Made by a program: the position numbers and the translations under genes. DNA of 32,463 nt from Promethearchaeota archaeon (lineage in GTDB: Archaea; Asgardarchaeota; Lokiarchaeia; Sigyniarchaeales; SOKP01). The stretch lies in the NCBI GenBank assembly GCA_004524535.1, contig SDNY01000032.1, forward strand, positions 1 to 32,463, in the 5' to 3' direction. Shown here in pieces: positions 8,250 to 31,378 of the stretch. The notes beneath the pieces are model-generated. The model did not search any database. It saw only the letters and a program-made list of their open reading frames with translations, and was not told the origin of the DNA. How positions within the stretch are numbered: position 1 is the first letter of the stretch; each line of letters begins with the position of its first letter.

Positions 8250-8340
8250 CTACTTAAAGCAATATTAATAAACATATTTTTAAAGAAGAAATTTATATCC
8301 TCATTTAATTAATAAAGAAAACAAAAAAGTCTGAGTTCCA

Positions 8341-9534
8341 ATGTCAAATATTCAGAAGATTAAAGATTTTTTTAAATCAAATGTTATTATTAATGAAATT
8401 AGAGAAGTTTTAGATTTTAAACCGGATACATTATTTGGTATTGATAAATATAATGCCGAAAAGCTTAAAGATTCAAATATTAAAACTATTTCAGATTTAG
8501 CGAATATAGACATCGATAATCCTCCTAAAGTAGATGTTCTACCTCAAATTTTAATTAAATGGATCAAGGTCGCTAAGGTTCTTGAAAAAGCAGTAAAAGA
8601 ACAATTAAAGGCACAAAAGAAACTTTTACTCATAGGATTGGATAACGGTGGCAAAACATCAATTTTAGCCGTTCTCCAAGATAAATTCTCAATTATTAAA
8701 GATCTATTACCTACAAGAGGTGTTTCGAGAGAGAAACTTGACTTCTTCGGATACCCTATCATCAGTTGGGATCTTGGAGGACAGGCGCAATACAGAGAAA
8801 AACTTTACTTTAACAAACCTGAATTATTTTTTGGAGAAGCAGATCTTATTCTATACGTTCTTGATGTACAAGATATTACAAGACTTGAAGAAGCGGCTAA
8901 TTACTTTAGTCAAGTATTAGACATTTTATTGGATTTAAAGGAGTTTCCCCCAATTTTAATAATTTTAAATAAATCAGATCAAGATGTTAGGCGAACCTTG
9001 ACGTGGCAGAAAAATGTAGATGTTATTAAAAGTAAATTTGATGTTATTCTTGACAGACATGAAAAGTTCAAAGCTGAATATTGTGATACTTCAATTTTTC
9101 AAAAAGAGACAATAATGCAAATGTTCAGTAATGCATTAATGAAAGTTTCCGAAACTTCTGAAATCGTAGAAAACATTCTTGAGGATTTTTCAACTCAAAT
9201 TGAAGGGAGAGCATTAAGTTTGATCTCAATGGATGGATTAATTTTTGGAAATTATTTTAAAATAAAAACAGATGAGATATTAGTTAATAATTCAGCCTTG
9301 TTATTACAAACGCTTTCCAACTTTCATAATTCTCTTGGTTTACTCAGGGAAAAGAGTATATCTTTAGAACTTCCTTTAAATAATTTAACAATTCGCGGAG
9401 AAAAGTTATTTGAATATTCTGAGTTAGAGATTCCAGTTTACCTATGGCTCCTCTCGGATAACCCAGAAAAATTAGATGAAAAATTAGATTTTTTTAGATC
9501 GCAACTGCTACCATTAATTAATTTGTTCATTTAA
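8341..9534 (+). CDS. Arf-family small GTPase with N-terminal HhH-like domain and C-terminal roadblock-like domain
   Basis: G1 GLDNGGKTS, G2 PTRG, G3 WDLGGQ, G4 NKSD; N-terminal LFGIDKYNAEKLKDSNIKTISDLA; C-terminal RALSLISMDGLIFG. Confidence 0.85.
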   Translation: MSNIQKIKDFFKSNVIINEIREVLDFKPDTLFGIDKYNAEKLKDSNIKTISDLANIDIDNPPKVDVLPQILIKWIKVAKVLEKAVKEQLKAQKKLLLIGLDNGGKTSILAVLQDKFSIIKDLLPTRGVSREKLDFFGYPIISWDLGGQAQYREKLYFNKPELFFGEADLILYVLDVQDITRLEEAANYFSQVLDILLDLKEFPPILIILNKSDQDVRRTLTWQKNVDVIKSKFDVILDRHEKFKAEYCDTSIFQKETIMQMFSNALMKVSETSEIVENILEDFSTQIEGRALSLISMDGLIFGNYFKIKTDEILVNNSALLLQTLSNFHNSLGLLREKSISLELPLNNLTIRGEKLFEYSELEIPVYLWLLSDNPEKLDEKLDFFRSQLLPLINLFI

Positions 9535-9571
9535 ATTTTAAATTAAAATTTCTTCTAATTTCAATTTAAAT

Positions 9572-9787
9572 TTATTCTAAATCCTTTTGAGCATCGAGCA
9601 AATATTTACTAGATTTCTCCATCATTTCTATTGCTTTATCTAAATTTTCAACGACGCTTTTTAATCCTTTAACTTCTGCGATATTCCGCCATTTTAGAAA
9701 ATTTTCTTTATGCGAATCATTATGATTTGCCCAATGTTGGCATAATTTCGATAATTTTAAAATATCTTTATCTTTTTTAGTAAAAAT
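9572..9787 (-). CDS. Small helical His-motif protein (HWxxHNxxH), not in the ORF track; start uncertain
   Basis: Manual translation IFTKKDKDILKLSKLCQHWANHNDSHKENFLKWRNIAEVKGLKSVVENLDKAIEMMEKSSKYLLDAQKDLE*. Directly downstream of cdhA on the same strand. No in-frame ATG/GTG/TTG at the 5' end. Confidence 0.7.
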   Translation of the reverse strand: MFTKKDKDILKLSKLCQHWANHNDSHKENFLKWRNIAEVKGLKSVVENLDKAIEMMEKSSKYLLDAQKDLE

Positions 9788-9859
9788 TCATCACTTTATC
9801 TTTAATAGATAGTAAAACTCGTAAATTAATTAATAAAAAAAAAATAAAAAAAATAAAAT

Positions 9860-12241
9860 TTAGCCTTCTCGGCACAATCTTTTCAGTAAGGTAGGATCAA
9901 TTATCTCTTTTGGTTCCCAATTTTTACTTTTCAAATATTCCTGTATTTCAGACTTCAAATTGATTGGAATGTCAGCTTCAACGCGAATGTATTTTTCTAA
10001 ATCGGTTGGAAGGTCAACGCCTTTATATTTTCGTTCTAAGTCAATCCAATGAGATAATTTTATCATACGTCCTTTGGAATTATCAGCTGGCCTCAAACAC
10101 ATTTTAGCAACTAAACAAATTGCCTGTTCGATAGATTCGGCGGTTGTTAATAGGTGTTCAGGACAAGGACTAACTAAATGGTCGCCAGTGCCATCTCGTG
10201 CATTCCATACTTTCCATGTATCCTCATCATCAGTTCTACCTATATACATACGTCTGTATTCAGCTGAATGGGGTCCACATACTGCTGGAATACCCATTCC
10301 ATTACAACTACTTGCTATACTTGCTGCTTTTTGCGACATTGCGCCCCAGGCAACTCCACAAGCTCCAACTCGATTTAAGATATAATCCGCTATTTCTTCA
10401 TAATTACCTCTTAAAGGACGTCGAGCAAATATATTTGCAACTTTAATTGCCGCACCATTTATATGTGGATTTGAGACACATGAGCCTACATTAACTAACC
10501 CTCCTCGGTCGAAATCACCAGGATATCTATCATATAATGTCTTACCTTCTTCGTCTTTTACAAGACCTATATCCATAGCACCACAGCCAGACACTACAAC
10601 AATATAATTCCTATTGCAGAATTCTTCAGCCATTGTATATAATTCTTGGATTTCTTTTCCATAATTGGCACAACCGATAATGGCTACAATTCCAGGAATT
10701 TCTCCTAAGACGATCGGAGCCCCTACATTTCGAATTTCAGTATCCTGAATGGGACCACGCCCTACTCTTAGGTTGAATTTTTCGTTTCTAATCTTTTCAC
10801 GCCCTGCATACATAATTAGAGTGAGAGGTGAAACATCTTTCATGCATTCGGCTTCACATCTACCACAATCTAAGCATGCATCAAATGTGTCTGATAATAT
10901 GGAAAAATCTCCGTCCTTTGCAGCATTTACACCTGCAACTAGTGGAAGATCATTAGGACAATTTCTCTGGCAATTTCCGCAGCCATTACATCTCATTGCC
11001 ATATCTATACATCCTTGCTCATCTGGAACTGCGCTTTTACTCTTTCTAATTGGCCTTACCTTTATTGCCGTTTCTACTGCAACTTGCCCCGCTTTTACGG
11101 GATCTAAAATTAATACACCTTTAGCTTTTCCACTAACTAAATCGTCTACAATTTCATCAACCGGATCATCAGTTCTATCTGGTAATCCATTCATATTTTT
11201 CTCATTTGAAGCGATAAATGGTGCATTTACTAGTTGCGCTTGTTCAAAGCTTCTCAAGTTAACGCATTGCTCATCGACCATCACTACATCTGCTAACCCA
11301 GAACGAATGAAATGCATTTGACGGGCGAGAGAACCAACAACTTTAGCTCCACTGTAATATCTTGTTAAATCCAAAGCAGTACAACAGATTGCTCCTACAT
11401 CAACTTTGCTTTCATATCCCTTCTCCCGCATATAATCAACTAATTCGATTCCAGGTGCTACATTATGGCCAATCATTAAAATTGTAGCCTTATTTTCCGT
11501 ATCTAAAGTACCCATTCCCAATTCAACAATAGGTACATCAGGATCTCCTACAGGAAAACCATATGCAGCAATTTGAACGGCATCAGCTATTTCCATTCCA
11601 ACAGCATCACATAATCCCGCTAAGAAACTTTTTGATTCATAATCTAAATAACTTGATTCTTGACCAGTATGACCCGCCGCAAGAAGATGAGTAATATTGA
11701 ATTGAACCCATTTCATTGCTTCTTCCAAATCTTCTAACGTTTCTGGTTTCATCCCTACTATCAATCGTGTACATGGCATTTCTACAGCAATATTGTTTCC
11801 AAAATTTATTGGGACATTTCCGTATTTTTCTTTGAGCCAGTGAAGCAAGTGATCTCCGTGAGCGCTGTGGCACGAGGCCCCGATACAGCACGCAATCTCT
11901 ACTATCTTTGCACATGCCGTTTCTATATTAATACCACAAGCCCCTGTTCTTCCCTTTGAGAGGTTGCATTTACCGAAGGTACAAAGGCAACACATATCAC
12001 AAATTTACCCAATTATTCCAACAGAATAATTGTTTGGCATGTAATATGGCTTGTACCTCTCCATTAATTTGAAAAACCAATTTCGCAATGTTGGAATATG
12101 GGGCATTGGAGTTGGACCCATTGGCTCCCATTCAGTCTCGTCTCCGAAGCTTACTTTTCCTGTCGTTAATTCGAAGCCCTTAATACTTCCTAGTGGGCCA
12201 GAGTAAGAATCTATTTTTATTTTTGCGCCTTTTTTACTCAT
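9860..12241 (-). CDS. cdhA: Acetyl-CoA decarbonylase/synthase complex subunit alpha (CO dehydrogenase), interrupted by a 30-nt insertion; predicted join(12034..12241,9860..12003), 783 aa
   Basis: Upstream ORF carries WEPMGPTPMP..LRNW..RYKPYYMP. Downstream ORF carries CDMCCLCTFGKC, GHNV, AICCTA, VDEQC, two ferredoxin motifs, GSCVSN and WGAMSQKA. Both ORFs are in the same frame. Confidence 0.92.
12004..12033 (-). other. Putative 30-nt bulge-helix-bulge mRNA intron in cdhA
   Basis: mRNA sense: CAUAUUACA UGCC AA^A CAAUUAUUC UGUUG GAAUAAUUG GGUA AA^U U UGUGAUAUG. Removal gives AUG CCA AUU UGU GAU (M P I C D) and deletes an in-frame UAA. Confidence 0.8.
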
Positions 12242-12402
12242 TTTTACATCAAATTAATTTTTATTTTGTTTTTTTTTAATAATATTTAATCAAATTTTTG
12301 ATTTTATTAAAGTTATTCTATGGAGAATATATCTTTGAGAATTTAAAAGATATTTATTATATTCAAAAGCTTAATAGAAGAAATTTCAAATAATTTATGA
12401 GT

Positions 12403-12414
12403 GTGAAATTTCAC
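12403..12414. promoter_or_regulatory. Perfect 12-bp palindrome upstream of cdhA, possible transcription factor site
   Basis: GTGAAATTTCAC, about 160 nt upstream of the cdhA start. Confidence 0.3.
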
Positions 12415-12511
12415 TCAATGCGAAATTATAGTGAGTCAAATTAAAAACAAAAAGTTAAAAAAAATTGATTAATTTGGAAAAAGAATTTGCGTAAGATTCG
12501 ATTAAGCTAAC

Positions 12512-13117
12512 TTATACGTTATATCTTTCCATATAATTTGAAATTGGGCCTGAATCTATCTCTGAATCAATATCCTTTGCGTCAAACTCATCTATTAACA
12601 AGTCAAATTTAAATATATCTGCTTCATCGTCTTTTAAAAAACACTGAACTTCTTCACCATCAGCATCGATTCCTATTTGTTCTAAAACCCCATTAAAAAT
12701 GCCTTGATAAAGAATACATATATTTTTTGCCATGATATTATCTTTTTCTTCTTGAGAGATAGGATTTTCTACAGAAATAAAGATTTTATCTTTTAAAAAG
12801 GCAGATGTTAAAATACCATATCCTAAATGCTCGAATGCGTCTAAGACGTTGATAATTACTTCCTTTTTATTAGATAAAGTTTCTTCACTCCAATTTGCGT
12901 CACCATATAATTTTTCAATAAAGTATTTTGCCACCGTTTTTCCAACCCATATGACTATATCTTCTGAATTTGCGCCTGCAAACTCTGAAAATTCAATTAA
13001 ATCAATTGGTCTTAACATTAATAACCTTAAATCTAAATCTCTAAAGAAAAGATGTCCTATACTATCATCGATGGTTATTTGCTCTTCTTTCTTAGATTTT
13101 TTAAATCTCTTAGACAT
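12512..13117 (-). CDS. V4R-domain protein
   Basis: RLLMLRP..WVGK..HLGYG..ICILYQGIFNGV..EEVQCFLKDDEADIFKF follows the V4R / TRAPP-Bet3-like fold pattern. Confidence 0.75.
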   Translation of the reverse strand: MSKRFKKSKKEEQITIDDSIGHLFFRDLDLRLLMLRPIDLIEFSEFAGANSEDIVIWVGKTVAKYFIEKLYGDANWSEETLSNKKEVIINVLDAFEHLGYGILTSAFLKDKIFISVENPISQEEKDNIMAKNICILYQGIFNGVLEQIGIDADGEEVQCFLKDDEADIFKFDLLIDEFDAKDIDSEIDSGPISNYMERYNV

Positions 13118-13218
13118 AATTACTCTCTTTTATACTATTTTATTCAATAATTATTATTTATATCCTTAAAAATTTAACTTTTTTTTAAAAAAATAATTTA
13201 TAAAAATTTTATAAGAGA

Positions 13219-14241
13219 TTAAATTAGGTCAAATATCATTTCAGTTACGTTGTTAATATTGAAATTCGTCTTAACTGATGTAAATAGTAACTTCCATTCT
13301 CTATTGTCGATTTTTTCGAATTCAAAATATTCAATAATTTCCTTGGTAAGTCTACCAATTTTTTCTTTATTATTCTGAACGGAATGATCAAATAAATCGA
13401 TTTTATTAGCTAAAATCAATAAGGGAATTCCAAATAATTCGTATCTATTTATAATTTTCCAAAATTCTCTTTTTGACTCTTCGAATCTTATTTGATTTGC
13501 GACATCAATCATAAATATTATAATATTAGATTCTTGAAGTCCGATTAACCATTTATTCCTGAAAGAGAGTTGTCCTGGCATGTCCCATAAAGCTAAAATC
13601 CCTCTAGATTCATCCTGAATGTATTCTATATTAAATTTTCTCGTCGGAACAAAATAATTATCATTATATTTGCCCGTTTTTATCCTTCTTATTAAAGATG
13701 TCTTTCCTACTTCATCTAAACCAAAAAGAAATACCTTATTGAACGAATCATGGTAATGAAATTGAATTTCAGGATGTCTTTCCACATATTCATCTCCATA
13801 TCTACGAATATCAATAAACACTGTAATTAAGAAATTTTCGATTTCAATTTCATCTTTAAATGTACATATTTTTTCGATATTTAACAATTCGTTTAATAGT
13901 TCTTCAAATATGTCTTTATAATCGTAGGGATTATCTTCTTTATCAAGAATTAATCCAATAATGATCTTCCCGTTAATGCAAGTTGTATAAATATTTAAAC
14001 CGTCCATTATTTGAGGGACTGGAGTATCAATTAAATAAAGATAATTAGCGTTGTTGGACTTGCTAATTGATTTACGCGTTCTATATCTATGGATAAGATC
14101 GCCATGATCATGTCCATAAATTATTTTGCTGAGTTGATCTTTATCATCTATCGTAATAATGTCATTTGGATAACTGTAAATATTGAGTTGATCCAAATCT
14201 TGGAAATTTTTACCCTTAAGAAGAAAAATGTTGTATAACAA
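13219..14241 (-). CDS. Arf-family small GTPase with N-terminal extension domain (longin/DENN-like by inference)
   Basis: GLDEVGKTS, PTRK, WDMPGQ, LANKID, TSVK; about 165-aa N-terminal alpha/beta domain (IIIGLILDKEDNPYDY). Confidence 0.85.
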   Translation of the reverse strand: MLYNIFLLKGKNFQDLDQLNIYSYPNDIITIDDKDQLSKIIYGHDHGDLIHRYRTRKSISKSNNANYLYLIDTPVPQIMDGLNIYTTCINGKIIIGLILDKEDNPYDYKDIFEELLNELLNIEKICTFKDEIEIENFLITVFIDIRRYGDEYVERHPEIQFHYHDSFNKVFLFGLDEVGKTSLIRRIKTGKYNDNYFVPTRKFNIEYIQDESRGILALWDMPGQLSFRNKWLIGLQESNIIIFMIDVANQIRFEESKREFWKIINRYELFGIPLLILANKIDLFDHSVQNNKEKIGRLTKEIIEYFEFEKIDNREWKLLFTSVKTNFNINNVTEMIFDLI

Positions 14242-14387
14242 TTATTATTTCAAGATTGTTAATTTCTTTAAGTGGGTAAATAAAAAATGTTTAAAAAATG
14301 TTTTGAATAAGATTTCTTATAATATGTTAAATCTTAATTAAGAAAATCATCGTAGATTTTTTTCAATTTAAAGGTTTCGCTTTATTT

Positions 14388-15839
14388 TTAAGAGGAGGAA
14401 TTTTCATTTTTTTTTGATCCACTATTTTTTGAAGATTCTAAGGATTCTGAAGGTTCTGTTTTATCACCTACCTCTTCTTTTGTATCTTTATCTTTGTCTG
14501 CCTTATCTTCTGGAGGGGGACTTGGTGTTGCAGAGGACGCAGATGACACAGGAGTGTTGCAAATAGGGCATTCAGACCACCCCTTCCTAAGACTATAACC
14601 GCATTTTACGCATTCTGTTAGGTCATTATCTGCTTCCCATTCAGGAATATCTGAAACACCTCCTTTTCTTTTACGAGCTAATTCCTCTAAATCTTCTTCA
14701 GTCCAGACTTCCATACCTTGAGGTATTCCGTCGGTTCTTTTTTCGGCCATCATTCTTAAATTTTCTTCAGTCCAAAATTCCATTCCTGGAGGAGGTGCTC
14801 CACCTCTTTGTTGGGCTGCTTCAGCAAGCTCTTCTACGGTCCAAGCTTGCAGTTCTTGACCTCCTGGGGTTCTTACAGTTCCTGTTGGCTGTGAAGGTAC
14901 TTGAGTTTGTATTCCGCCTGCTTTTTGAGAAGATGGGATCTCACAACACGCTGCTGAAAATTTTATCAATGCTTCAAAACATATTGCAAATCTATCTTGA
15001 TCATTTCCCTCGTCTATAATTAAAATTAATGAAGTATTATCATTAATTAAAGGAATTCCTATTCCACATACTGATGCATTAGAGTCGCGACTAGATTCTA
15101 ATCCACTGCGAATTTTCCCCATTGATGTTAATAAATCCCTTTTACTCATTAAAAAATCGCATATCGGGTCGCCGTGCCTCTGATACCCCTCATGATATTT
15201 TTCTAATTGGGTACTTGTCAATTTAGAATCCAAAGCCTTTATTATCGCACTTACGTAAGAATAGATTTGAGATTTTGGCTCTTTTTGAGAATCATCTAAT
15301 TTATACCCTTCTAAATCAAGATCACCCATAAAAGGCGCGAATAATGGCTCAGCATCCTTCATTTTACCGTAAATGATTGTTTTAGAAAGTAAACACTTGA
15401 TTTCTCCATAATAAGCTATTGAATTATCTAAAAAATTAACATTTTTTTTATCTATTACTAGTCGAGGCACGCTCCGAAATATAACGTCCACCCAAGGCAT
15501 TTCCTTAACAGGTATTATTGCTACACACGTTTTTTCAATTAGTTTACGTAACGCTTTCGAATACTCCTTAAACATCTGTTTTAATTCCTTTTGAACATCC
15601 TTGTATTGTTCTCCCTCTAATTCTTTCTCTGCTTTGACTAAGAAACTTTGAAATTTTTCTTTATTTTTTTTGAGATTTCCGCCTAATTTCTTAATTTCGC
15701 CAATAATATTATCTTTAAAAATGAAAGTAGCGTCTTCAATCAAATTATTTTGAAATTCAGTAAGTTCTGAATCTAAATACTCAGAAACATCAATCTGAAG
15801 ACTATTTATAAATTTTTCAAATAATTTTTGTTCTGCCAA
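14388..15839 (-). CDS. Hypothetical protein with 23-aa WTEE repeats, a zinc ribbon and a disordered tail
   Basis: 483 aa; three W-T-(V/E)-E-x-L repeats, CVKCG..WSECPIC and a Ser/Pro/acidic C-terminus. Confidence 0.75.
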   Translation of the reverse strand: MAEQKLFEKFINSLQIDVSEYLDSELTEFQNNLIEDATFIFKDNIIGEIKKLGGNLKKNKEKFQSFLVKAEKELEGEQYKDVQKELKQMFKEYSKALRKLIEKTCVAIIPVKEMPWVDVIFRSVPRLVIDKKNVNFLDNSIAYYGEIKCLLSKTIIYGKMKDAEPLFAPFMGDLDLEGYKLDDSQKEPKSQIYSYVSAIIKALDSKLTSTQLEKYHEGYQRHGDPICDFLMSKRDLLTSMGKIRSGLESSRDSNASVCGIGIPLINDNTSLILIIDEGNDQDRFAICFEALIKFSAACCEIPSSQKAGGIQTQVPSQPTGTVRTPGGQELQAWTVEELAEAAQQRGGAPPPGMEFWTEENLRMMAEKRTDGIPQGMEVWTEEDLEELARKRKGGVSDIPEWEADNDLTECVKCGYSLRKGWSECPICNTPVSSASSATPSPPPEDKADKDKDTKEEVGDKTEPSESLESSKNSGSKKNENSSS

Positions 15840-16448
15840 TTATATTACCAATTTTAAATAGTTCATTTTTATTTCTAATTGTTCATAATTATATCAACGA
15901 GAACTATATAAAAATTTAATTAAAATAGATGAGCAATAATATTTTAATAAGTAGGGGTTGATTTAATTAAACGAATTTTTGATTCGTTTCGAGCTCCTTT
16001 CTAACAAACTTCTCTAAAAATAGTGTTCAATGGTATTTAAATATTATAAAAAAGATTTTCAACGATATATTAGAGAGTATCCCTAATATTTTTAATAAAT
16101 TATTAAGAGCAATAAAAATAATTAAAAAAAAATTTAAATTTTGAACTTCACTTTAAATTTGAGGAGAAGAGAATCTTTTAAAAAACATTAATCCAATAAT
16201 ATAAAACATTAATAAGAGAAAACATTTATAGGGGAAAAACAAAATTCACATATTAACCCGAAAAAAAAAACATTTAAATATCAATTTATAATAAATATTA
16301 TTATAATAAAATTTATCAAGAAGGCGGTTGTAAGTACCTTTCTGCAACAATTAATGTTTTTTAGTCCTATTTTCATATCAGTTTAAATTAGGCAGGCGTA
16401 AATGGACTATTTTCATTGGTTGTAGCAATAAAAAAATGGTGTTATAGA

Positions 16449-16736
16449 ATGAAAATTGTAACTGTAAACGTTCCAGAATCTTATATAGACGCAATCGAAA
16501 AATTAGTAGGAGAAAATGGTCTCTACCCATCGAGGTCAGAATTAATAAGATGTGCCGTGCGCGAATTCTTGTTAAAAGAGTTAAGAATGGCAAAAAACAT
16601 GACCAAATATGATGAGACTAAAATTGACGATTTTGACAGCGAACATTTTGTGAGGATTCCAATAGAAAGTAAAGATAAAGAGGAACCCGTGCGTTCATTT
16701 AAAACCTATAAAATTCTCAGAAGGCTTGAAATTTAA
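16449..16736 (+). CDS. Ribbon-helix-helix (CopG/Arc/MetJ-type) transcriptional regulator
   Basis: MKIVTVNVPESYIDAIEKLV..YPSRSELIRCAVREFL. ATG at 16449 preferred over the TTG at 16416. Confidence 0.85.
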   Translation: MKIVTVNVPESYIDAIEKLVGENGLYPSRSELIRCAVREFLLKELRMAKNMTKYDETKIDDFDSEHFVRIPIESKDKEEPVRSFKTYKILRRLEI

Positions 16737-16789
16737 AATTCTCAAAATTAAGGATTTGCATAAAAATATATAGTGTATGGCCATCTATT

Positions 16790-16820
16790 AGGGAATATCT
16801 CCCTTCTTTTTTTATTTTTT
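16790..16820 (+). terminator. Hairpin plus oligo-T terminator-like element
   Basis: AGGGA-ATATC-TCCCT followed by long T tracts, about 55 nt after the RHH stop codon. Confidence 0.45.
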
Positions 16821-17128
16821 TTGAAACTGACGCCTCAAATTTTCTGTTCAAAAAAAGGTTTTTTTTTTACATCAATATAAAATTTTTTCATTTTTTTATT
16901 TGTATTATTGTTGTTTTTTCACAAAATTTGAGTTAAGTTAAAAGAAATTAGAAGCTAATATTTATTAAATACAATTGTTAAATTAATTCTGATAATAAAA
17001 TAAAAACAGAATAACCCTAATAGATTTAATTTATAAAAAGATATAATTGAAGAGGTCCATAAAAGGAGGTTTTTTTTATTTCGGTTAACAATGAAAAATC
17101 CGCTAAAGGAAGGTATACTCCTAAGTTT

Positions 17129-18346
17129 ATGGAATGGGGGATTATTACTAATGAAAATTTCAAGTCAACTTACGATGTTCCGATAAAGAGATGGGATCCC
17201 TTATCTACAGTTTCTATTACTACAAAAGATTTTGGCCTTCGAAAAGAGCGAGTAAGATACTATGGTCATTATTCTTATATCTCCCCAATCCGGGGTGAAA
17301 GACCTAAGGGATTTAAGAGAGGAGAAATTAGCTATGAACATCTAGATTGTACAGAATATCCAATTGATGAAGTTAAAGACATATTTATGAGTATTTCTGA
17401 GGGAAAAAAAATATATTATAATGATGGAACTCCGATTGGAGATGGATTTACGATTATTGTAGCTGAGGATGAGAAAAGAAGAGATTCGCCTTTTTCAAAA
17501 ACACCTCATAAGATTGAAAAGATTCCTGATTCTTGTAAAGCAATTACTTTGATAAATCGATATCCTTCAATGGCTCGTATTGTGTCTCCTGAGATTAAAA
17601 CTTCAATGGAAGAAATTTTACCTGCTCATATAAAACTTGCACAGGGTATAAATTTGGTTACCATTTCAAGACATTTTTATCCTTCCCTATGTTTTAACTT
17701 AATTCCGGAAAATGTTTTGTTGGGCATTTTAATTTCAATGAAAGCTGCAATTCTTTACTCTGTTGAAGAGGCTATAGAAAGAGATTATTACGATATTCCT
17801 GTTTCACCTTTTTTTAATATAGGGACAAAAGCAGGGGGTTCACAACCTAGAATCCATGGTCAAGTTTATATAGATTTGAATATGGATGGTCATGGGTCAC
17901 GATTAGAGGGATATCTTAGAGCATTTAAAGAAATGGGTGATAACTGTCATCTATGTGAAACTACTCATGGAGATAGCGATCGAATCATTTTAAAAACTAC
18001 ATATTGGACTTTTTATACTACAGGAAGTCCCGTAAGAAATTATCACATAAGATTTCATCCAAACGAGCATATTAGAAGATTTAGCCAATTAAATGTCAAC
18101 CAATTACTTGATTTGGCAAAATCTTTAAAGATCATATTTGTAGCGTTAGACGATATTGAAGTTGATAAAAATCGAAATATTTTATTCAATTGCTGTCCTT
18201 TTGGATACAACGCGAATTTCCATTTATTTGCTGACATTATCCCACATGAGATAATTGGGGGTCTTGAGATGGCTGAGGATATGCGCGTTGCAAGAAAATT
18301 ACCTAATGAAGCAGCAAAAGAAATAAGGAGAGCAATTTCTGGATGA
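17129..18346 (+). CDS. GalT-like (HIT superfamily) hexose-1-phosphate nucleotidyltransferase
   Basis: RGERP, NRYP, FNIGTKAGGSQPRIHGQ (variant of GxSxxHPHxQ), CHLCE, FHLF..IIP and GGLE. Confidence 0.75.
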   Translation: MEWGIITNENFKSTYDVPIKRWDPLSTVSITTKDFGLRKERVRYYGHYSYISPIRGERPKGFKRGEISYEHLDCTEYPIDEVKDIFMSISEGKKIYYNDGTPIGDGFTIIVAEDEKRRDSPFSKTPHKIEKIPDSCKAITLINRYPSMARIVSPEIKTSMEEILPAHIKLAQGINLVTISRHFYPSLCFNLIPENVLLGILISMKAAILYSVEEAIERDYYDIPVSPFFNIGTKAGGSQPRIHGQVYIDLNMDGHGSRLEGYLRAFKEMGDNCHLCETTHGDSDRIILKTTYWTFYTTGSPVRNYHIRFHPNEHIRRFSQLNVNQLLDLAKSLKIIFVALDDIEVDKNRNILFNCCPFGYNANFHLFADIIPHEIIGGLEMAEDMRVARKLPNEAAKEIRRAISG

Positions 18347-18459
18347 GGAATTTACGATGGAATAATATTAATAAATAATGGATTATAAATTAAAAGAAGC
18401 TTGAATAAAATCCTTAGTTTTAAATCTATAAATTTTCTTATTATTAATAATAATAGAAT

Positions 18460-19623
18460 ATGGTTTCAACAATGACAAGAGAATGGTCTGCAATAATCCT
18501 TGCTGGCGGTAAAGGTTCTCGATTAATGCCATTAACATCGGAAATTCCAAAACCATTAGTGAAAGTAACTAATAAACCAATGATTGATTATTCTATAGCA
18601 CACTTGATATATGCAGATATAAAGCATATCATTCTCGCATTAGCATATATGGGCGAAGATATTAAAAAGCATGTTAAAAATACATGGACTCCCGATAAAC
18701 TCGGTGATGTTGAGTTAGAATGTGAAATTCATGATAGTAAAGGTACTGCGGACGCCTATAGATTACTAGCAGATAATATTGACTCGGAAAATGTTGTTGT
18801 CAGTATGGCAGATATAGTTACTTCTCTTCCAATGAAAGATTTTATGAGCTTTCATAAAGAAAAGAACGGTATTGCCACTATTTCAATGAAGATGGTTGAA
18901 AGCCATACTTCTCAATACGGGGTTGTTTTATTAGATAAAAATAGAAAAATTTATTTATTTTTGGAAAAGCCAATGCCTATGGAACTGTATTTAAGCAGCA
19001 TGGCACAAAGGACTGATTTGTTCCTACATACGAACATAATCAATACAGGAATTTACTGTTTTAAAAAAGATATTGGAGATATTCTTCATGAAACAGGATT
19101 AATAGATTTTGGCGGTGAAGTTTTTCCATATCTTCTTGAAAATAAATATGATTTGTATGGTTTTGTCAGAGATTATTACTGGATGGATGCTGGTAATTAT
19201 CAAACCTATATGTGGGCGAATTGGGATTTATTGAGGAAATATGCATGGCCAATTTCGCCAAATGGGGAGGAATTTGATGGAGTTTATGTCATGGGAATAA
19301 TTAATTCGGGTAAAGAAATAACTATTGAGAAACCAACTTGTTTTGGAGATTGTGTTAAGCTTCACAACAATGTAAAAATACGCGAATTAACTTCGATTGG
19401 AAGCAAGGTGACCATAGGAGAGGATGCTATAATAGAAAAAAGTGTTATATGGGATAACGTGAAAATAGGTCCTGGATGTTATATTAACGAATCAATAATC
19501 TGTAACGATTGTACAATCGGAAATAATGTTGTTTTAGAAAGAGTAATAGTACCTCCATATTGTAAGATTTCAAGTAATAACCAATTGAGAGATATGACAC
19601 TAGAAGTTGGAAAACATATATAA
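18460..19623 (+). CDS. NDP-sugar pyrophosphorylase (mannose/glucose-1-phosphate nucleotidyltransferase) with left-handed beta-helix
   Basis: AIILAGGKGSRLMPLT..PKPL, FLEKP, INTGIY, YWMDAG and C-terminal hexapeptide repeats. Confidence 0.9.
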   Translation: MVSTMTREWSAIILAGGKGSRLMPLTSEIPKPLVKVTNKPMIDYSIAHLIYADIKHIILALAYMGEDIKKHVKNTWTPDKLGDVELECEIHDSKGTADAYRLLADNIDSENVVVSMADIVTSLPMKDFMSFHKEKNGIATISMKMVESHTSQYGVVLLDKNRKIYLFLEKPMPMELYLSSMAQRTDLFLHTNIINTGIYCFKKDIGDILHETGLIDFGGEVFPYLLENKYDLYGFVRDYYWMDAGNYQTYMWANWDLLRKYAWPISPNGEEFDGVYVMGIINSGKEITIEKPTCFGDCVKLHNNVKIRELTSIGSKVTIGEDAIIEKSVIWDNVKIGPGCYINESIICNDCTIGNNVVLERVIVPPYCKISSNNQLRDMTLEVGKHI

Positions 19624-19654
19624 TCTGATTTTTTCCGAATTACCTTTAAAAACG

Positions 19655-21370
19655 TTATTTTTTGGCAAACGGTTCAAGATCCAAATCCATAAACACGCCA
19701 TCGTTGGATTCGAGTGTTCCTAAAAAGTTCCATTCACCCTCATCTACATTTTGCCCACTTCCGTATTTTGAAGCCATATTATACAATCTCTTAAAGTTTT
19801 CGTAATGTAGCGCCACTCGATTTTCAGAGTAATCTCTTGCTGACCAAGTCGTTATTAAAAATTGCCAATCACTACTTTCCAAAAGTAATAGCTCTCGCAC
19901 CAATTGTTTTAATATTTTCGATAGATTCTCATCAGCCGAGTCTTTATATTTTGCAATTATCTCTTCACTTTTAGCTTCACACTCATAAATCTTCTCCCAC
20001 GTCCAAGTTGTCCATTCATTCAACCATACCCAATGACTAGAAGCCTGCCCCCACGAGCCTTCAATGATCTGTACAACTTTATTTGGCGGATTTTCTTCGA
20101 GATAAAGCCTGGTGTTAGTTAATTCTATCTCATCATCATCTTCTATCCATCTTAATACTCTCGCTAACCACCAATTTCCTTCAAACCACCAATGCCCAAA
20201 TAATTCACAATCATAAGGAGCAACAATAATTCCGTTGTTTCCAAAATTATTTTTATAATCTCTCAAGATATCCTTAACGAGATTAACATAATGACTTGCA
20301 TTTTCGTCAAGTTTTCCTGGAACATCCTCTGGCCAATACAACATTTTCGAACCCAAATCAATTTTAGGGCTAGTACACTTCCAATATCGTAAACCCCCAG
20401 GATAGTGCTTTTTATGAAAATCTAAATATTCAGCACAGCCAGGATAACCATGTTCACCTGACCATACAACAATCCCTGTCTTTTCATCCCTTGTAAAGAA
20501 TCCAACAGGGGCTGGGGTGGATGGATCTGTAGATACTAAATAGGCTTCATATTGTGATTTTTCAAAAGTAGTGGGAATTTCTTCATATTGCGATTCAAAT
20601 TGTTTCCATAATTCTGCAAGCAAAGGAAATCGCGCTGCATAAACACCTTGGGACTTTCCACCTAATAAAAGGGTAGTATCAACAAAAAAATATTTAAGAC
20701 CATTTTTAGCAACAAAATATTCAACACCAGGTCGTTCATACTCCTCGCCTGAAATAGGGTTTTTCCATCGATACCCAGGACGATACCCACATTCTGGAAG
20801 CCAAACTCCTGTAGGTGCCCTCCCAAAATGATGTTTATAATTATCAACTGCCGTTTTAAATTGAGCATCAATTGAAGTATCTTTGGATAATAACGGGCAA
20901 TATCCATGAGTAGCACCACATGTGATAATATCGATCAAATCCATATCTTGGAGTTTTTTAAAAGCACCAATGATATCTCTATTAAATCTATGAAGAAAAT
21001 CATCTCTTGTTCGTTCGAAGAATTCCTCCCACCATTTCGTAAGTCTAATCCTTCCTTCCTCGTATTTATTTTTCGTAAAATCGTCAAAATCATGGAGAGC
21101 AGCCCCTACTTTCTCGTCTAAGTAGTCGAGGAACCCATTAATGAAAGAGGGGTGTCTAAGCATTTCACATAATACTGGTGTGAGTCCAATAGTTAATTTA
21201 GGATGATAATCATCATCAATCAATTTATATAATTCTTGAAGCAGGGGGATATATGTCTCTGCAGCAGCTTCATTTACCCAACTAGTACCATGTGGCCAAA
21301 TACCGTGTCCCAAGACCCAGGGAAGGTGAGAATGTAATACAAGACAAAATGAGCCCAATATCTCTGGCAT
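19655..21370 (-). CDS. GH57 1,4-alpha-glucan branching enzyme
   Basis: VLHSHLP, ETYIPL, ATHGYCPL, WLPEC (nucleophile), PYDCELFGHWWFEG (acid/base) and ELLLLESSDWQF. Start likely the ATG at 21370 (MPEILG). Confidence 0.92.
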   Translation of the reverse strand: MPEILGSFCLVLHSHLPWVLGHGIWPHGTSWVNEAAAETYIPLLQELYKLIDDDYHPKLTIGLTPVLCEMLRHPSFINGFLDYLDEKVGAALHDFDDFTKNKYEEGRIRLTKWWEEFFERTRDDFLHRFNRDIIGAFKKLQDMDLIDIITCGATHGYCPLLSKDTSIDAQFKTAVDNYKHHFGRAPTGVWLPECGYRPGYRWKNPISGEEYERPGVEYFVAKNGLKYFFVDTTLLLGGKSQGVYAARFPLLAELWKQFESQYEEIPTTFEKSQYEAYLVSTDPSTPAPVGFFTRDEKTGIVVWSGEHGYPGCAEYLDFHKKHYPGGLRYWKCTSPKIDLGSKMLYWPEDVPGKLDENASHYVNLVKDILRDYKNNFGNNGIIVAPYDCELFGHWWFEGNWWLARVLRWIEDDDEIELTNTRLYLEENPPNKVVQIIEGSWGQASSHWVWLNEWTTWTWEKIYECEAKSEEIIAKYKDSADENLSKILKQLVRELLLLESSDWQFLITTWSARDYSENRVALHYENFKRLYNMASKYGSGQNVDEGEWNFLGTLESNDGVFMDLDLEPFAKK

Positions 21371-21606
21371 AAAAACAAAAATACGTAATTTCTTAATAAT
21401 TTTGCCACATGCCAAAAATCTCTAGAAAAAACACAATTAATCGATTTAACTAATTCAAAATTGGATTTTTCATTAAACATTTGATTTCTTAAATACAGGG
21501 AAATTTTCTTTTTTTTTTAAAATAGAAAAATTTAAGAACTTAAACTATATGAAATTAGTAATACTTTCCAATTGAAATTGAAAAGAAAATATAAATATTT
21601 GATTAA

Positions 21607-22989
21607 ATGGTTGAAAATCTTAAAGAACTTACAAAGGACGGACGTATCATCGGAAGAGCTAATTATGTATTCACGCCAGAGATAGCAAGCAGCATCGGTT
21701 CAATTCATGGTAGTTTATTTAAGCAAAACGAATCTGTAGTCATGGGGAGGGATTATCATAACGATTCTCGAATGCTTAAGCGAGGATATACGTCAGGTTG
21801 CATGAGTACTGGAGTAAATCTGTTAAATTTATCAGATTGTGCATATCCTTTATTACAATTCACAATTAGAAGATTTGGAGCGAGTGGCGGTGCTTATTTT
21901 TCGGCAGGACATTTATATAGTGAAGATGTTGGAGTAAGATTTGTTGATGCTGGGGGAATTGAATTATCTTCTTTAGAAATTCAAAAAATAATTAATGCTT
22001 ATAATAATTACCCCGAACAAATACGTAGAGTAGATCCAAATGAAATAGGTCAAATAACCTCAATCCCTCAGACTAAAGAAATTTATATTAAATCTTTACA
22101 GCAATTTGTTAACAAGAAAAGAATACGAAATGAGGATCTTAAGATTGTAGTTGATTGTTCTTATGGTCCTAGCGGGAAGATTACGCCATTGTTATTAAAT
22201 GAGATTGGGGTAGAGGTTATTGCATTAAATACACATTATCGTCAGAGATCGAGTAATCCAGTTCCTAACATTCATACTATTAGAAACTGTGCAGATATAG
22301 TGAAAGCATCCAACAGTCATCTTGGTGTATGTTTTGATGTCGATGGTTCCAGAATTCTAGTATTAGACGAAAGTGGATTAGAAATAAATTTTGAAGATTT
22401 ACTAATGCTATTTATATCCTACGACGAAAGAATAACAAAATCTAAATCAAATACCATTATAACTACTCCTACAATTTCTTCAACCGCAAAAGAATTTATC
22501 AAAGAATCTGGATATCCATTAAAGGAAGTTCAAAATGATCCTGGAGAGATTTCAAGGCAAATTAGAGAAGAACGGGCGTGTTTTGCCGCAGCGGATACAT
22601 TAAAATTTTATTTTCCAGAATATGCTCCATTTAGCGATGGAAACTTCATTCTCTTAAAGCTGCTTGAAATTATGACGATTCAGGAGGATTTATTAAGTTC
22701 ATTAACTAGAGGGTTCCCTAAAGGGATAAAGATTAATAAATCAATTACAGTCTCTCAAGATATAATTGAAAATTTTCACAATCAATTAAGAAAGGTTGTT
22801 GAGGAAAATGGTTTTAAATATCATGACATCATAAATGAGTTAAAGATTATTGATAAGGAGCAAAAAATTTTTACTCAGGTAAAGATTTCTTTATACAGAA
22901 ATGCGATACTTCTTTCTGCAGAATCTGATGACGTTAACGCAGCAAAAACTATGATAACCGAGCTTGAGGAAATTATTACTAATTTATAA
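21607..22989 (+). CDS. Phosphomannomutase/phosphoglucomutase-superfamily protein with degenerate active site
   Basis: GRANYVFTPE, VVMGRD..SRMLKR and VVDCSYG are present. FSAGH replaces TASHN and FDVDGSR replaces DxDxDR. Confidence 0.8.
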   Translation: MVENLKELTKDGRIIGRANYVFTPEIASSIGSIHGSLFKQNESVVMGRDYHNDSRMLKRGYTSGCMSTGVNLLNLSDCAYPLLQFTIRRFGASGGAYFSAGHLYSEDVGVRFVDAGGIELSSLEIQKIINAYNNYPEQIRRVDPNEIGQITSIPQTKEIYIKSLQQFVNKKRIRNEDLKIVVDCSYGPSGKITPLLLNEIGVEVIALNTHYRQRSSNPVPNIHTIRNCADIVKASNSHLGVCFDVDGSRILVLDESGLEINFEDLLMLFISYDERITKSKSNTIITTPTISSTAKEFIKESGYPLKEVQNDPGEISRQIREERACFAAADTLKFYFPEYAPFSDGNFILLKLLEIMTIQEDLLSSLTRGFPKGIKINKSITVSQDIIENFHNQLRKVVEENGFKYHDIINELKIIDKEQKIFTQVKISLYRNAILLSAESDDVNAAKTMITELEEIITNL

Positions 22990-23119
22990 ATCAATTGTTA
23001 TAAAAAATATTCCTATTTTTTTAAATTCCTTTATAGAAGAATTAAAAGTTTAAAAATATGTGAGATTTAATAATAATAATATAAACTATATTAAATTAAA
23101 AAATAAAAAGATGTGAATT

Positions 23120-23821
23120 ATGGCATTAGATGCAGCTGGAATGATCTTATTAGTATCATTTTTTATAATATGGGGAGTCTTCCTGGCATGGGATTTCTTT
23201 CGTAGAATTTCATGAATCTCTCATGAAGTACGCAAAGGAGAAAAATATGGCTTCCTAGCTTACATATTGGCTGTAATTCCAGTTAATATGTTATGGGGCT
23301 ACGGTTTTAATATTTTAGGGGTTTATATTGTCCTTTTTGTATTATGGATAATTTGTCTTTTTCGTGATTTAATATTAGTATATGGCAAAACAAAAGAATA
23401 TGATGATATTTTGCTATTTTTAGGAATTGCAATTCTAGTTCAAGTAATTTTAACAGGAATATTGCCATATATGAATGAGCAAATGCAAAGTAATTGTGTG
23501 GCAGCCTGGGTCTTTTGGTTTCCTGATGTTTATAATCCAAATACAAATGCTATAAAAAGTTGGGTTAATGCTAACTATCTATTAGGATTTAGAGTAGCAG
23601 CAACAGGCATGGTAATATTAGCTATTTTACCAATGATCTTAGATTTATACTACACGGAAGAACATGTTAATCTTTTAGCAATAATTTTTATCGATTGTAT
23701 TTTTGTGGCCCCTTTTCTCTGGCTGGCATACGTTTGGATGGGAGGCATCGGTTGGCCATTGACTTTCTTGTTTGCGGTGCTTTTATTTATAGTTTTATTA
23801 CTATTAACAAGGGAGAGATAA
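23120..23821 (+). CDS. Multi-pass membrane protein interrupted by a 30-nt insertion; predicted join(23120..23205,23236..23821), 223 aa
   Basis: ATG at 23120 gives MALDAAGMILLVSFFIIWGVFLAWDFFRR (one TM helix), in frame with the hydrophobic ORF 23267..23821. The two are separated only by a TGA at 23213..23215 inside a hairpin. Confidence 0.75.
23206..23235 (+). other. Putative 30-nt relaxed BHB/BHL mRNA intron
   Basis: UCGU AG^A AUUUCAUGA AUCUC UCAUGAAGU ACGC AA^A GGAG: 9-bp stem, 5-nt loop, central helix with 3 of 4 pairs. Removal gives F F R R G E K Y G. Confidence 0.62.
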
Positions 23822-23942
23822 TTAAATATCTTTTTTTTTATTTTTTTTTTGGTTTGTTATTAAATTTTTTATGCTTATTTTTATATATAATTATAGGTTA
23901 AAGAGTGATAATCTATATTTTAATTAAAAAAGAGATTGTATA

Positions 23943-24938
23943 ATGGCAAAAAAAAAAGGTCAATTAGATACGGATGATAAGAGCAAGGAGTCAAATCTTA
24001 ATAAAACATACTCTTTAAAAGATTTACCGGGAGTAGGAGAAGCGACTTTAAAAAAATTAAAAGAGGCTGGAATTACATCTATTAGATCCCTTGCGATGGT
24101 TCCCAAACAATCATTAATGGATGATGCATCTATTGGCGAAAAGACAACTGAGAAATTAATTAAACTTGCCCAAGATATTGAAAAAATGGGATTTAAATCT
24201 GCGAGTGAAATTTGGGAAAAAAGAAAAGTATTGAAAAAATTGACTACGGGAAGTCAAAATTTGGACGAATTATTGGCTGGGGGTATAGAAACAGGGGCGG
24301 TAACAGAGGTTTTTGGGGAATATAGAACAGGTAAAACTCAACTTGCACATCAGATTTGTGTTAATGTACAACTGAAAGAAGAGGAAGGAGGGCTTGAAGG
24401 TAGCGCTCTATATATCGATAGTGAAGGAACTTTTAGACCTGAAAGAATAATTCAAATGGCAGAAGCAAGGGATTTGGATTATAATAAAGTATTAAAAAAT
24501 ATTACAATTGGGCGAGCTTACAATAGTGACCACCAGATTCTCTTAATAAAGGATGCTCCAAAAGTCATAGAAGAAAAAAATATTAAAGTAATTATAGTTG
24601 ATTCGCTAATTAGTCATTTTCGCGCCGAATATATTGGAAGGGGTACACTCGCCTCTAGACAGCAAATATTAAATAGCCATATTCATGATTTATTAAGATT
24701 AACCGAAACTTTTGAATTAGCCGCCGTTTTTACAAATCAAGTCTCATCTAGACCAGATGTATTTTATGGGAATCCTATAATCCATACTGGAGGTCATATA
24801 GTCGCCCATGGTGCTACAATTAGAATTTATTTGAGAAAAGGAAAAGGAGAGCAGAGAGTTGCTAAAGTTGTTGATGCTCCTCATTTGCCGGAAGAAGATG
24901 CTGTTTTTTCTATAACAGAAGATGGGATAACAGATTAA
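23943..24938 (+). CDS. radA: DNA repair and recombination protein RadA
   Basis: N-terminal HhH (LPGVGEAT), FKSA polymerisation motif, Walker [22 protein letters not shown], Walker B IIVDS and GGHIVAH. No intein. Confidence 0.97.
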
Positions 24939-30772: not shown

Positions 30773-31378
30773 TTGATGGAAAAAAAGGAAAACATTCAGA
30801 TTTCGCTTGATGATATAAACGAAGATGATATACCAGCCAAGATTCCAGCTAAATTTATTAATTCGAGAATTGTTATTTTTAATCCTCTTTATGCCTCTTA
30901 CTTATATGTGAAGGAAAAGTTTTTTGGCTCTCCCCTTGGAATAAGTAAGCCCCGTTTAGAATATTTCCATAAACCTTCAGAGTTGTCTGTTATTGAGGCT
31001 TATTACCTATTAGAAAAAGGTAAGATTACTATTTTTGATGTTAAAAGAGAGAAGGATCTTAATGCTAAGGAATTTTTTGAAATTGCCAAACAAATACACC
31101 ATAAATTTGAGGAAAAATACGTAATTTATAAAGATTTAAGAGAAAAAGGATATATTCCTCGACCAGGGTTGAAATTTGGAGCAGATTTTGTAGTATATAA
31201 GAAAGGCCCCGGATTAGAACACTCTCCCTTCATTGTACACGTATTACCTCATGATTCTAAAATTAGTGCAATTGATATGGTCAGAGCTGGCAGATTAGCT
31301 ACATCAGTTAGAAAAAAATTTGTTATCGCAAATCCCCAAACTATAAACTACTATTTCTTTACGTGGTTTAAGCCGTAA
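30773..31378 (+). CDS. endA: tRNA splicing (intron) endonuclease, catalytic subunit
   Basis: ELSVIEAYYL, VIYKDLREKGY, GLKFGADFVVY (Tyr), GPGLEHS (His) and RLATSVRKK (Lys): catalytic triad intact. Confidence 0.95.
   Translation: MMEKKENIQISLDDINEDDIPAKIPAKFINSRIVIFNPLYASYLYVKEKFFGSPLGISKPRLEYFHKPSELSVIEAYYLLEKGKITIFDVKREKDLNAKEFFEIAKQIHHKFEEKYVIYKDLREKGYIPRPGLKFGADFVVYKKGPGLEHSPFIVHVLPHDSKISAIDMVRAGRLATSVRKKFVIANPQTINYYFFTWFKP

Follow-up and report, generated by a model that had tools for sequence, protein, structure and literature searches.

We put at about 0.9 the probability that a 30-nt insert in cdhA, the gene for the alpha subunit of the CO dehydrogenase/ACDS complex, is a real bulge-helix-bulge (BHB) mRNA intron and a member of a genome-wide set. 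The gene lies in the window, the whole stretch of 32,463 nucleotides analysed here, and is present in a single copy in the genome concerned (G000; 3.66 Mb, 99.1% complete, 198 contigs). The initial annotation had read this apparent pseudogene as a BHB-interrupted gene, a reading that the predicted fold, the exact restoration of the protein motif and the dN/dS values support. Its account of the cdhA insert stands, but it understated the scope, as G000 has about two dozen such inserts. The features of the window are as follows.

12034..12241, minus strand: cdhA exon 1 (69 codons and the first base of an Ile codon)
12004..12033, minus strand: putative 30-nt BHB intron, with an in-frame UAA at 12007-12005
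9860..12003, minus strand: cdhA exon 2, CO dehydrogenase/ACDS alpha subunit (PF03063 and 4Fe-4S dicluster)
12040..12048, minus strand: predicted exon-exon helix, 5' strand (from the fold)
11993..12001, minus strand: predicted exon-exon helix, 3' strand, codons C-D-M (from the fold)
12033..12039, minus strand: central helix strand UGCC (12039-12036) and 5' bulge, predicted cut 12034/12033
12003..12009, minus strand: central helix strand GGUA (12009-12006) and 3' bulge, predicted cut 12004/12003
12010..12032, minus strand: predicted intron hairpin of 9-10 bp, stem 12032-12024 with 12018-12010
23206..23235, plus strand: second BHB-type insert of 30 nt, breaking a membrane-protein gene at about 23120-23821
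30773..31378, plus strand: tRNA splicing endonuclease EndA (PF01974 and PF02778)

The cdhA insert and the integrity of the gene

The sequence and coordinates claimed for the BHB at 11993-12048 agree with the DNA on the minus strand. Positions 12048-12040 pair with 12001-11993 to give an exon helix of 9 bp, and the central helix UGCC/GGUA forms 4/4 pairs. The bulges are AAA (12035-12033) and AAU (12005-12003), followed by a single unpaired U at 12002; the 5' bulge therefore has 3 nt, and the 3' bulge has either 3 nt and an extra U or an A-U pair and a bulged U, so that in the model it appears slightly relaxed. Folding 11993-12048 by minimum energy returns the proposed structure (-18.1 kcal/mol, 64% of the ensemble), with a z of -4.78 and 0 of 200 shuffles equally good. 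The folding program places one further U-G pair at the tip of the hairpin.

If read through, the frame runs YYMP-NNYSVGIIG-stop, as the annotation had it, and 78 aa are made before the stop. Cutting after the second base of each bulge excises 12004-12033 and gives a CdhA of 783 aa that starts with the ATG at 12241. The junction motif of the gene spliced in silico is the same as in uninterrupted orthologues, and exon 1 is 97% identical to one of these (L002). Shifting the cut by up to 2 nt leaves the product unchanged because of an AA repeat. The cysteines of the junction motif presumably ligate the B and D iron-sulfur clusters, and a translated 10-residue loop would therefore not be tolerated there. 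A group I/II self-splicing intron was considered and rejected, since such introns need a core of hundreds of bases and the insert is a single hairpin of 30 nt.

Decay of the gene, which the annotation had named as a reading to be checked, is not what the substitution rates indicate. The dN/dS of cdhA spliced in silico is 0.022/0.262 against L002 and 0.047/0.52 against L003, compared with 0.052/0.608 for the intact pair L002-L003. The resulting ratios of 0.08-0.09 are like those of intact congeners and point to purifying selection. The neighbouring genes are the same as in an intron-free congener. Just downstream of cdhA (about 9572-9787, minus strand) lies a small ORF of ~70 aa with a HWxxHNxxH motif and no Pfam match, which stays beside cdhA in many relatives; its product is possibly a metal (nickel) binding accessory protein, although this is a guess.

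cdhA inserts in relatives

cdhA was sought in 59 relatives and matched in 32 of the 35 genomes of the same family; the full-length copies in other families appear to have long open frames. As the annotation had assumed, CdhA is normally insert-free: the motif YMPICDMCCLCT stands without an insert in 24 of 30 copies (loci L001-L030), and the remaining six, that of G000 included, hold inserts. No translated 10-aa loop occurs at the site in the cdhA copies examined. G016, with a short cdhA frame, holds an insert too, and the six relatives carry seven inserts between them, one genome (locus L023) having two. In 7 of the 8 inserts (these seven and that of G000), YMPICDMCCLCT[FY]GKC is restored by the BHB cut with the highest score; the exception is the first insert of L023, whose restoring cut comes second, after the other intron of that locus, and ties one rival. 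A tandem pair of intact cdhA copies is found in G012 (L009).

A pattern that demands an insertion was run on GTDB genomes and on metagenomes. It gave 18 matches in GTDB, of which nine are archaeal and obey the cut rule without exception (9/9), five of them repeating inserts already found; the nine bacterial matches are due to chance and were left out. All 18 metagenome matches are cdhA and obey the cut rule. In total there are 27 distinct cdhA inserts of 30-34 nt, at five sites spanning 21 nt (with 3, 11, 1, 5 and 7 sequences per site), and each has at least 3 of 4 central pairs at the motif-restoring cut. Inserts of 30 and 33 nt bear a stop where read, and those of 31, 32 and 34 nt shift the frame.

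The sequence of the 30-nt insert was found in G000 alone among the assemblies searched. Its site is shared with L023 (32 nt) and L196 (33 nt), the ends being the same and the stems different; these two inserts form weak folds in isolation (z -0.48 and -1.75), and the site offers three sequences for covariation. At the cdhA site between L and C, eight pairs show two-sided change, a number that 0 of 500 shuffles reach. The 34-nt site shows no more covariation than shuffles do (36-57 of 500), and one of its central pairs is broken in 6 of 11 sequences.

Inserts elsewhere in the genome

A census that makes no use of the motif compared 1.055 Mb of the congener G008 with G000 (821 aligned genes, 246,677 codons; two G008 tiles were picked first because they hold rpoA' and S10). 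It found 14 frame-breaking inserts in G000, of which 12 measure 29-33 nt and all 12 are BHBs by prediction, and nine in-frame open inserts. The two longer ones (39 and 77 nt) are situated at the 5' fringe of stop-to-stop frames, have no good BHB and were not counted. In G008, 874 genes yielded two frame-breaking inserts, of which one is a BHB of 30 nt. Central pairs number 44 of 48 in the 12 inserts of G000; a slid cut gives 14-23 and the mirror geometry 22. The cut was picked among protein-equivalent placements, which the swap control takes into account: inserts swapped among loci give a mean of 30.5 central pairs, and 0 of 20,000 swaps reach 44. The three inserts whose placement is uniquely defined by the protein have 4/4 central pairs each, and two of them split a codon. 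At 105 loci in other relatives, frame-breaking inserts are BHBs in 11 of 11 cases and the eight in-frame open ones are not, although these 11 are the known cdhA and rpoA' cases and amount to a check, not to a new sample.

Three inserts are common to G000 and G008, with identities of 29/30, 30/30 and 30/30, the sole difference changing a U-G pair to U-A; private inserts number 12 in G000 and one in G008. From the 15 inserts among 821 aligned genes one would expect several dozen genome-wide, by an extrapolation that is biased to conserved genes. The count of inserts with orthologue or Pfam support now stands at ~24 in 22 genes and comprises the census cases, argG and further Pfam-backed cases; two more inserts are common to G000 and G008 and have no intron-free orthologue. 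The genes hit include rpoA' (twice), S10, EF-2, RNase HII, Sec61-beta, argG, cdhA, cdhC (twice) and cdhD, and three ACDS subunit genes (cdhA, cdhC and cdhD) are thus interrupted in one genome. The positions of some of these inserts are listed below.

G000:C17:309-338 and G000:C17:449-479: rpoA' inserts
G000:C32:3640-3669 and G000:C32:3790-3818: cdhC inserts
G000:C8:3057-3086: cdhD insert
G000:C135:24666-24695: S10 insert

When the pieces of 20 hand-picked loci were scanned with Pfam (three pieces of <20 aa omitted), 16 of the 20 showed a domain that runs on across the insert, or starts or stops abruptly at it. Rpb1_1 ends at model position 73 and resumes at 74, CdhD passes from 135 to 138 at residue 3, and S10 from 56, at residue 62 of 63, to 59. 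Pfam gave no such support at Elp3 and three other of the 20 loci; Elp3 (C98:11116), C188:175 and C189:15035 are candidates on the basis of sequence motifs only. The candidates C101:21656 and C169:3646 were set aside, having no homology support. A genome scan by structure was unspecific, with 352 real against 340 mirror sites (45 against 31 once tightened), and requiring the minimum-energy fold kept 25 sites only and lost good cases; homology-backed cases alone were therefore counted. Some inserts are relaxed, with 3/4 central pairs, among them the second rpoA' insert.

In the window itself, the insert at 23206-23235 has a fold z of -2.25 and is identical in G008. No intron-free orthologue was seen and the gene has no Pfam match, and it is a weaker case than the cdhA intron. 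The window gene at 19655-21415, which is probably GH57-like to judge from a motif, is intact, and its G008 orthologue holds a 30-nt BHB insert with a stop (L154:12035-12064, minus strand). G000:C118 carries a second copy of the first 25 argG codons, 96% identical and corresponding roughly to argG exon 1.

Several of the interrupted genes belong to the core of the cell. rpoA' has a single match in G000, carrying two inserts, and is broken in the same motif in 6 of 55 other genomes with a match, all from the family of the window; the break falls at the same nucleotide in five of them and 4 nt onward in the sixth. The site shows 15 two-sided covariation cells, and its central helix is 100% paired while the Gly codon varies. 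Two relatives (L134 and L135) have longer rpoA' inserts (50 and 40 nt) with a central helix that is still 4/4, and the putative class of inserts extends past ~30 nt in this respect. The split rpoA' of G052 was rejected as a case, being explained by a scaffold gap and an in-frame insertion with no BHB. S10 is broken in G000 alone among 51 genomes; cdhC is broken twice inside one domain, in G000 alone among 46, and removal of both inserts gives 478 aa. A search of the 99%-complete assembly for second copies of rpoA', S10, RNase HII, Sec61-beta, cdhA, cdhC and cdhD found none, and the other EF-2 match in G000 is partial (30%). As single-copy core genes are broken, a living cell must get past these stops and frameshifts.

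Splicing machinery, rival readings and meaning

Of the enzymes that splicing would need, the EndA encoded at 30773..31378 is probably the catalytic alpha subunit; its Tyr/His/Lys triad was identified by eye from the motif of the family. A second EndA paralogue is found at G000:C84, and a stop-free RtcB at G000:C101. The EndA pair fits the two-subunit enzyme known for Asgard archaea, which is described in the available text of PMC5829648 and in section 2.6 of a preprint on Asgard tRNA introns; according to the former, Asgard EndA in general has an L1 loop for relaxed substrates. ARAGORN finds just 20 tRNA genes in the 99%-complete G000, a low number that points to many tRNAs with more than one interruption.

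Four metatranscriptome contig sets were compared with window positions 8300-24500 at 85% likeness and contain 7-15% of the words. Among the RNA contig matches listed, no joint of 12003 with 12034 appears and none from the strain itself spans the insert; one contig that is 99% alike (X1) ends at 11991, 12 nt before the cdhA site. An intron-free loose end of RNA at 12036 has different synonymous bases and hence comes from a relative.

The inserts could instead be DNA-level hairpin insertions, MITE-like or produced by replication slippage, that inactivated cdhA and the other genes. The inserts are indeed inverted repeats that each bring in a stop or shift the frame, and cdhA is uninterrupted in the closest congener. 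However, the same class breaks single-copy essential genes, the dN/dS of cdhA is unchanged, and the pairing between insert and exon is particular to each locus; neither multiple similar copies nor a target-site duplication, as expected of a MITE or an insertion-sequence relic, was found, and we regard such inactivation as very improbable. Ribosome hopping is known from T4 gene 60 and from the yeast mitochondrial byps, and a ribosome that hops across inserts remaining in the mRNA would suit their similar size, their hairpin and a stop that is often near the junction. Hopping requires matched take-off and landing codons, however, and these are present in 1 of the 12 census inserts (cdhA has CCA versus TAA). 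Moreover, 2 of the 3 uniquely placed inserts split a codon, and hopping, which we also regard as very improbable, would leave the 4-bp exon-intron helix in BHB register unexplained.

The BHBs might also be cut and mostly left unligated, as a decay or control signal, with protein made from unassembled intact copies or after removal at the DNA level. Yeast TSEN cleaves mRNAs for decay, according to the text available from PMC10485636, and the assembly is in 198 contigs. Against this stand an assembly that is 99% complete with no second copy of the core genes found, and exact frame restoration at dozens of independent sites, which makes sense only if the exons are joined. A DNA circle of 30 bp is, moreover, too small for recombinase excision, which argues against removal at the DNA level, and we give cutting without ligation only a slight chance. 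Misassembly of the cdhA insert is unlikely because L023 and L196 hold different BHB inserts at the same nucleotide. The exact 30-nt insert being private to G000 would suit an assembly artefact in that genome, yet the near-identity of the three inserts shared with G008 speaks against it too, and an artefact seems the most remote of these explanations.

In the preferred reading of the insert as a BHB mRNA intron, an (alpha-beta)2 EndA would cut the cdhA pre-mRNA after the second base of each bulge, and RtcB would join the exons, as we infer from archaeal tRNA and cbf5 splicing. The full CdhA would arise only after joining, and the unspliced message would yield a stub; the intron presumably circularises after cleavage. 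The class would consist of BHB introns 29-34 nt long, in a lineage that we place in Lokiarchaeia (Promethearchaeia). They would often be gained or lost, in conserved, hairpin-prone coding motifs, and have their shape, not their sequence, in common.

As to the origin of the inserts, intron-free sites in G008 fold better than random coding sites (mean -6.7 vs -3.7 kcal/mol, p about 1e-4), which fits gain at anticodon-like stem-loops and could also be a trace of loss. The cdhA exon hairpin folds more strongly in G000 than in G008 (-11.3 vs -5.8). Of the 30 bases upstream of the cdhA intron, 8 differ from G008, compared with 35 of 240 further away; over 11 loci, the difference is 18.6% near the insert vs 13.2% far from it with one misaligned locus dropped, and 135/720 vs 397/2446 with this locus kept. 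The raised divergence near inserts suggests co-conversion or selection for the helix. None of 29 inserts searched against the genome recurs there at full length (the best other match has 20 nt, E 0.013). No sign was seen that introns are copied from one another or from tRNA introns, the longest shared word being 10 nt in a comparison that used the 20 tRNAs of ARAGORN with rough intron limits. End repeats measure 0-4 nt, and a scan for promoters and terminators gave chance-level hits only. An intron with an adjoining free-standing homing endonuclease was rejected: the cdhA contig has no LAGLIDADG match, no endonuclease family was found among the 12 neighbour proteins of cdhA, and the neighbours are those of the intron-free congener. 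Elsewhere, a LAGLIDADG domain (G000:C148:1425-1985) lies in a 930-aa frame, ~1 kb from the candidate insert C148:3002-3031. Our best guess is that the introns arrive by insertion into anticodon-like mRNA stem-loops and may spread by recombination between relatives, taking along some flanking exon.

With the exception of cbf5, whose intron is reportedly also covered by Watanabe 2002 and Yoshinari 2006, archaeal coding sequences are taken to lack introns. The BHB intron of cbf5 pre-mRNA occurs in Desulfurococcales and Sulfolobales and its splicing was demonstrated by cDNA, according to the available text of Yokobori 2009 (PMC2738675). The annotation had called cbf5 the only well-established archaeal mRNA intron; cbf5 is established in print, but it is not alone, since Haloferax HVO_1309 has a BHB intron of 46 nt in its 5' UTR that circularises, as stated in the accessible parts of PMC7714728 and PMC10485636. 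So far as these sources describe it, cbf5 resembles cdhA in having a short intron with BHB boundaries in a conserved catalytic or ligand motif, in a frame that is restored by cutting between bases 2 and 3 of the bulge, and in a two-subunit host EndA. It differs in being one gene with one site, whereas G000 has about 24 homology-backed inserts, with two each in rpoA' and cdhC, and cdhA has five sites within 21 nt across relatives. cbf5 splicing is known from cDNA, while that of cdhA is predicted from sequence. HVO_1309 is likewise an mRNA substrate of EndA, but it is a single case in a non-coding position with no frame to restore, whereas the cdhA intron breaks the frame. Asgard tRNA introns share with the G000 inserts an (alpha-beta)2 EndA, repeated independent gains at BHB-compatible sites and the lack of sequence families, but the papers on Asgard introns deal with tRNA genes only and the G000 inserts are in coding genes. 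The preprint has Jordi-, Freyr- and Atabeyarchaeia as its focal groups, and neither 'mRNA' nor 'cbf5' occurs in its main text. Full-text literature, mostly outside subscription journals and supplements, yielded no description of BHB introns in cdhA or in other coding genes of Asgard archaea, nor was any further archaeal mRNA case found in the available portions of PMC13149111 and PMC12397907.

The mechanism is already known; the novelty lies in the gene, cdhA, in its hot spot of five sites and in the extent to which single-copy core genes are affected in an Asgard lineage. We think it fairly likely that in this Asgard family several dozen tRNA-type introns are spread over the protein-coding genes of the whole genome, as a population that is still changing, and that the RNA polymerase, ribosomes, EF-2 and Wood-Ljungdahl complex of the family depend on EndA/RtcB splicing. 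If true, mRNA introns would have spread without a nucleus and independently of a spliceosome in close relatives of eukaryotes, with hairpin-forming conserved motifs as insertion hot spots. Gene callers will truncate or drop such genes, which can distort estimates of Wood-Ljungdahl completeness and Asgard marker-gene sets. XBP1/HAC1-type splicing employs the same ligase family as RtcB, and splicing of these genes would bear on a possible source of such protein-catalysed mRNA splicing. At least one Asgard family would then splice its mRNAs as a matter of routine, and protein synthesis itself could not do without EndA and RtcB. The family would offer a living system for how introns invade coding genes without a nucleus and for asking how splicing competes with coupled translation, and as near relatives differ by about ten introns per 800 genes, gain and loss could be studied directly.
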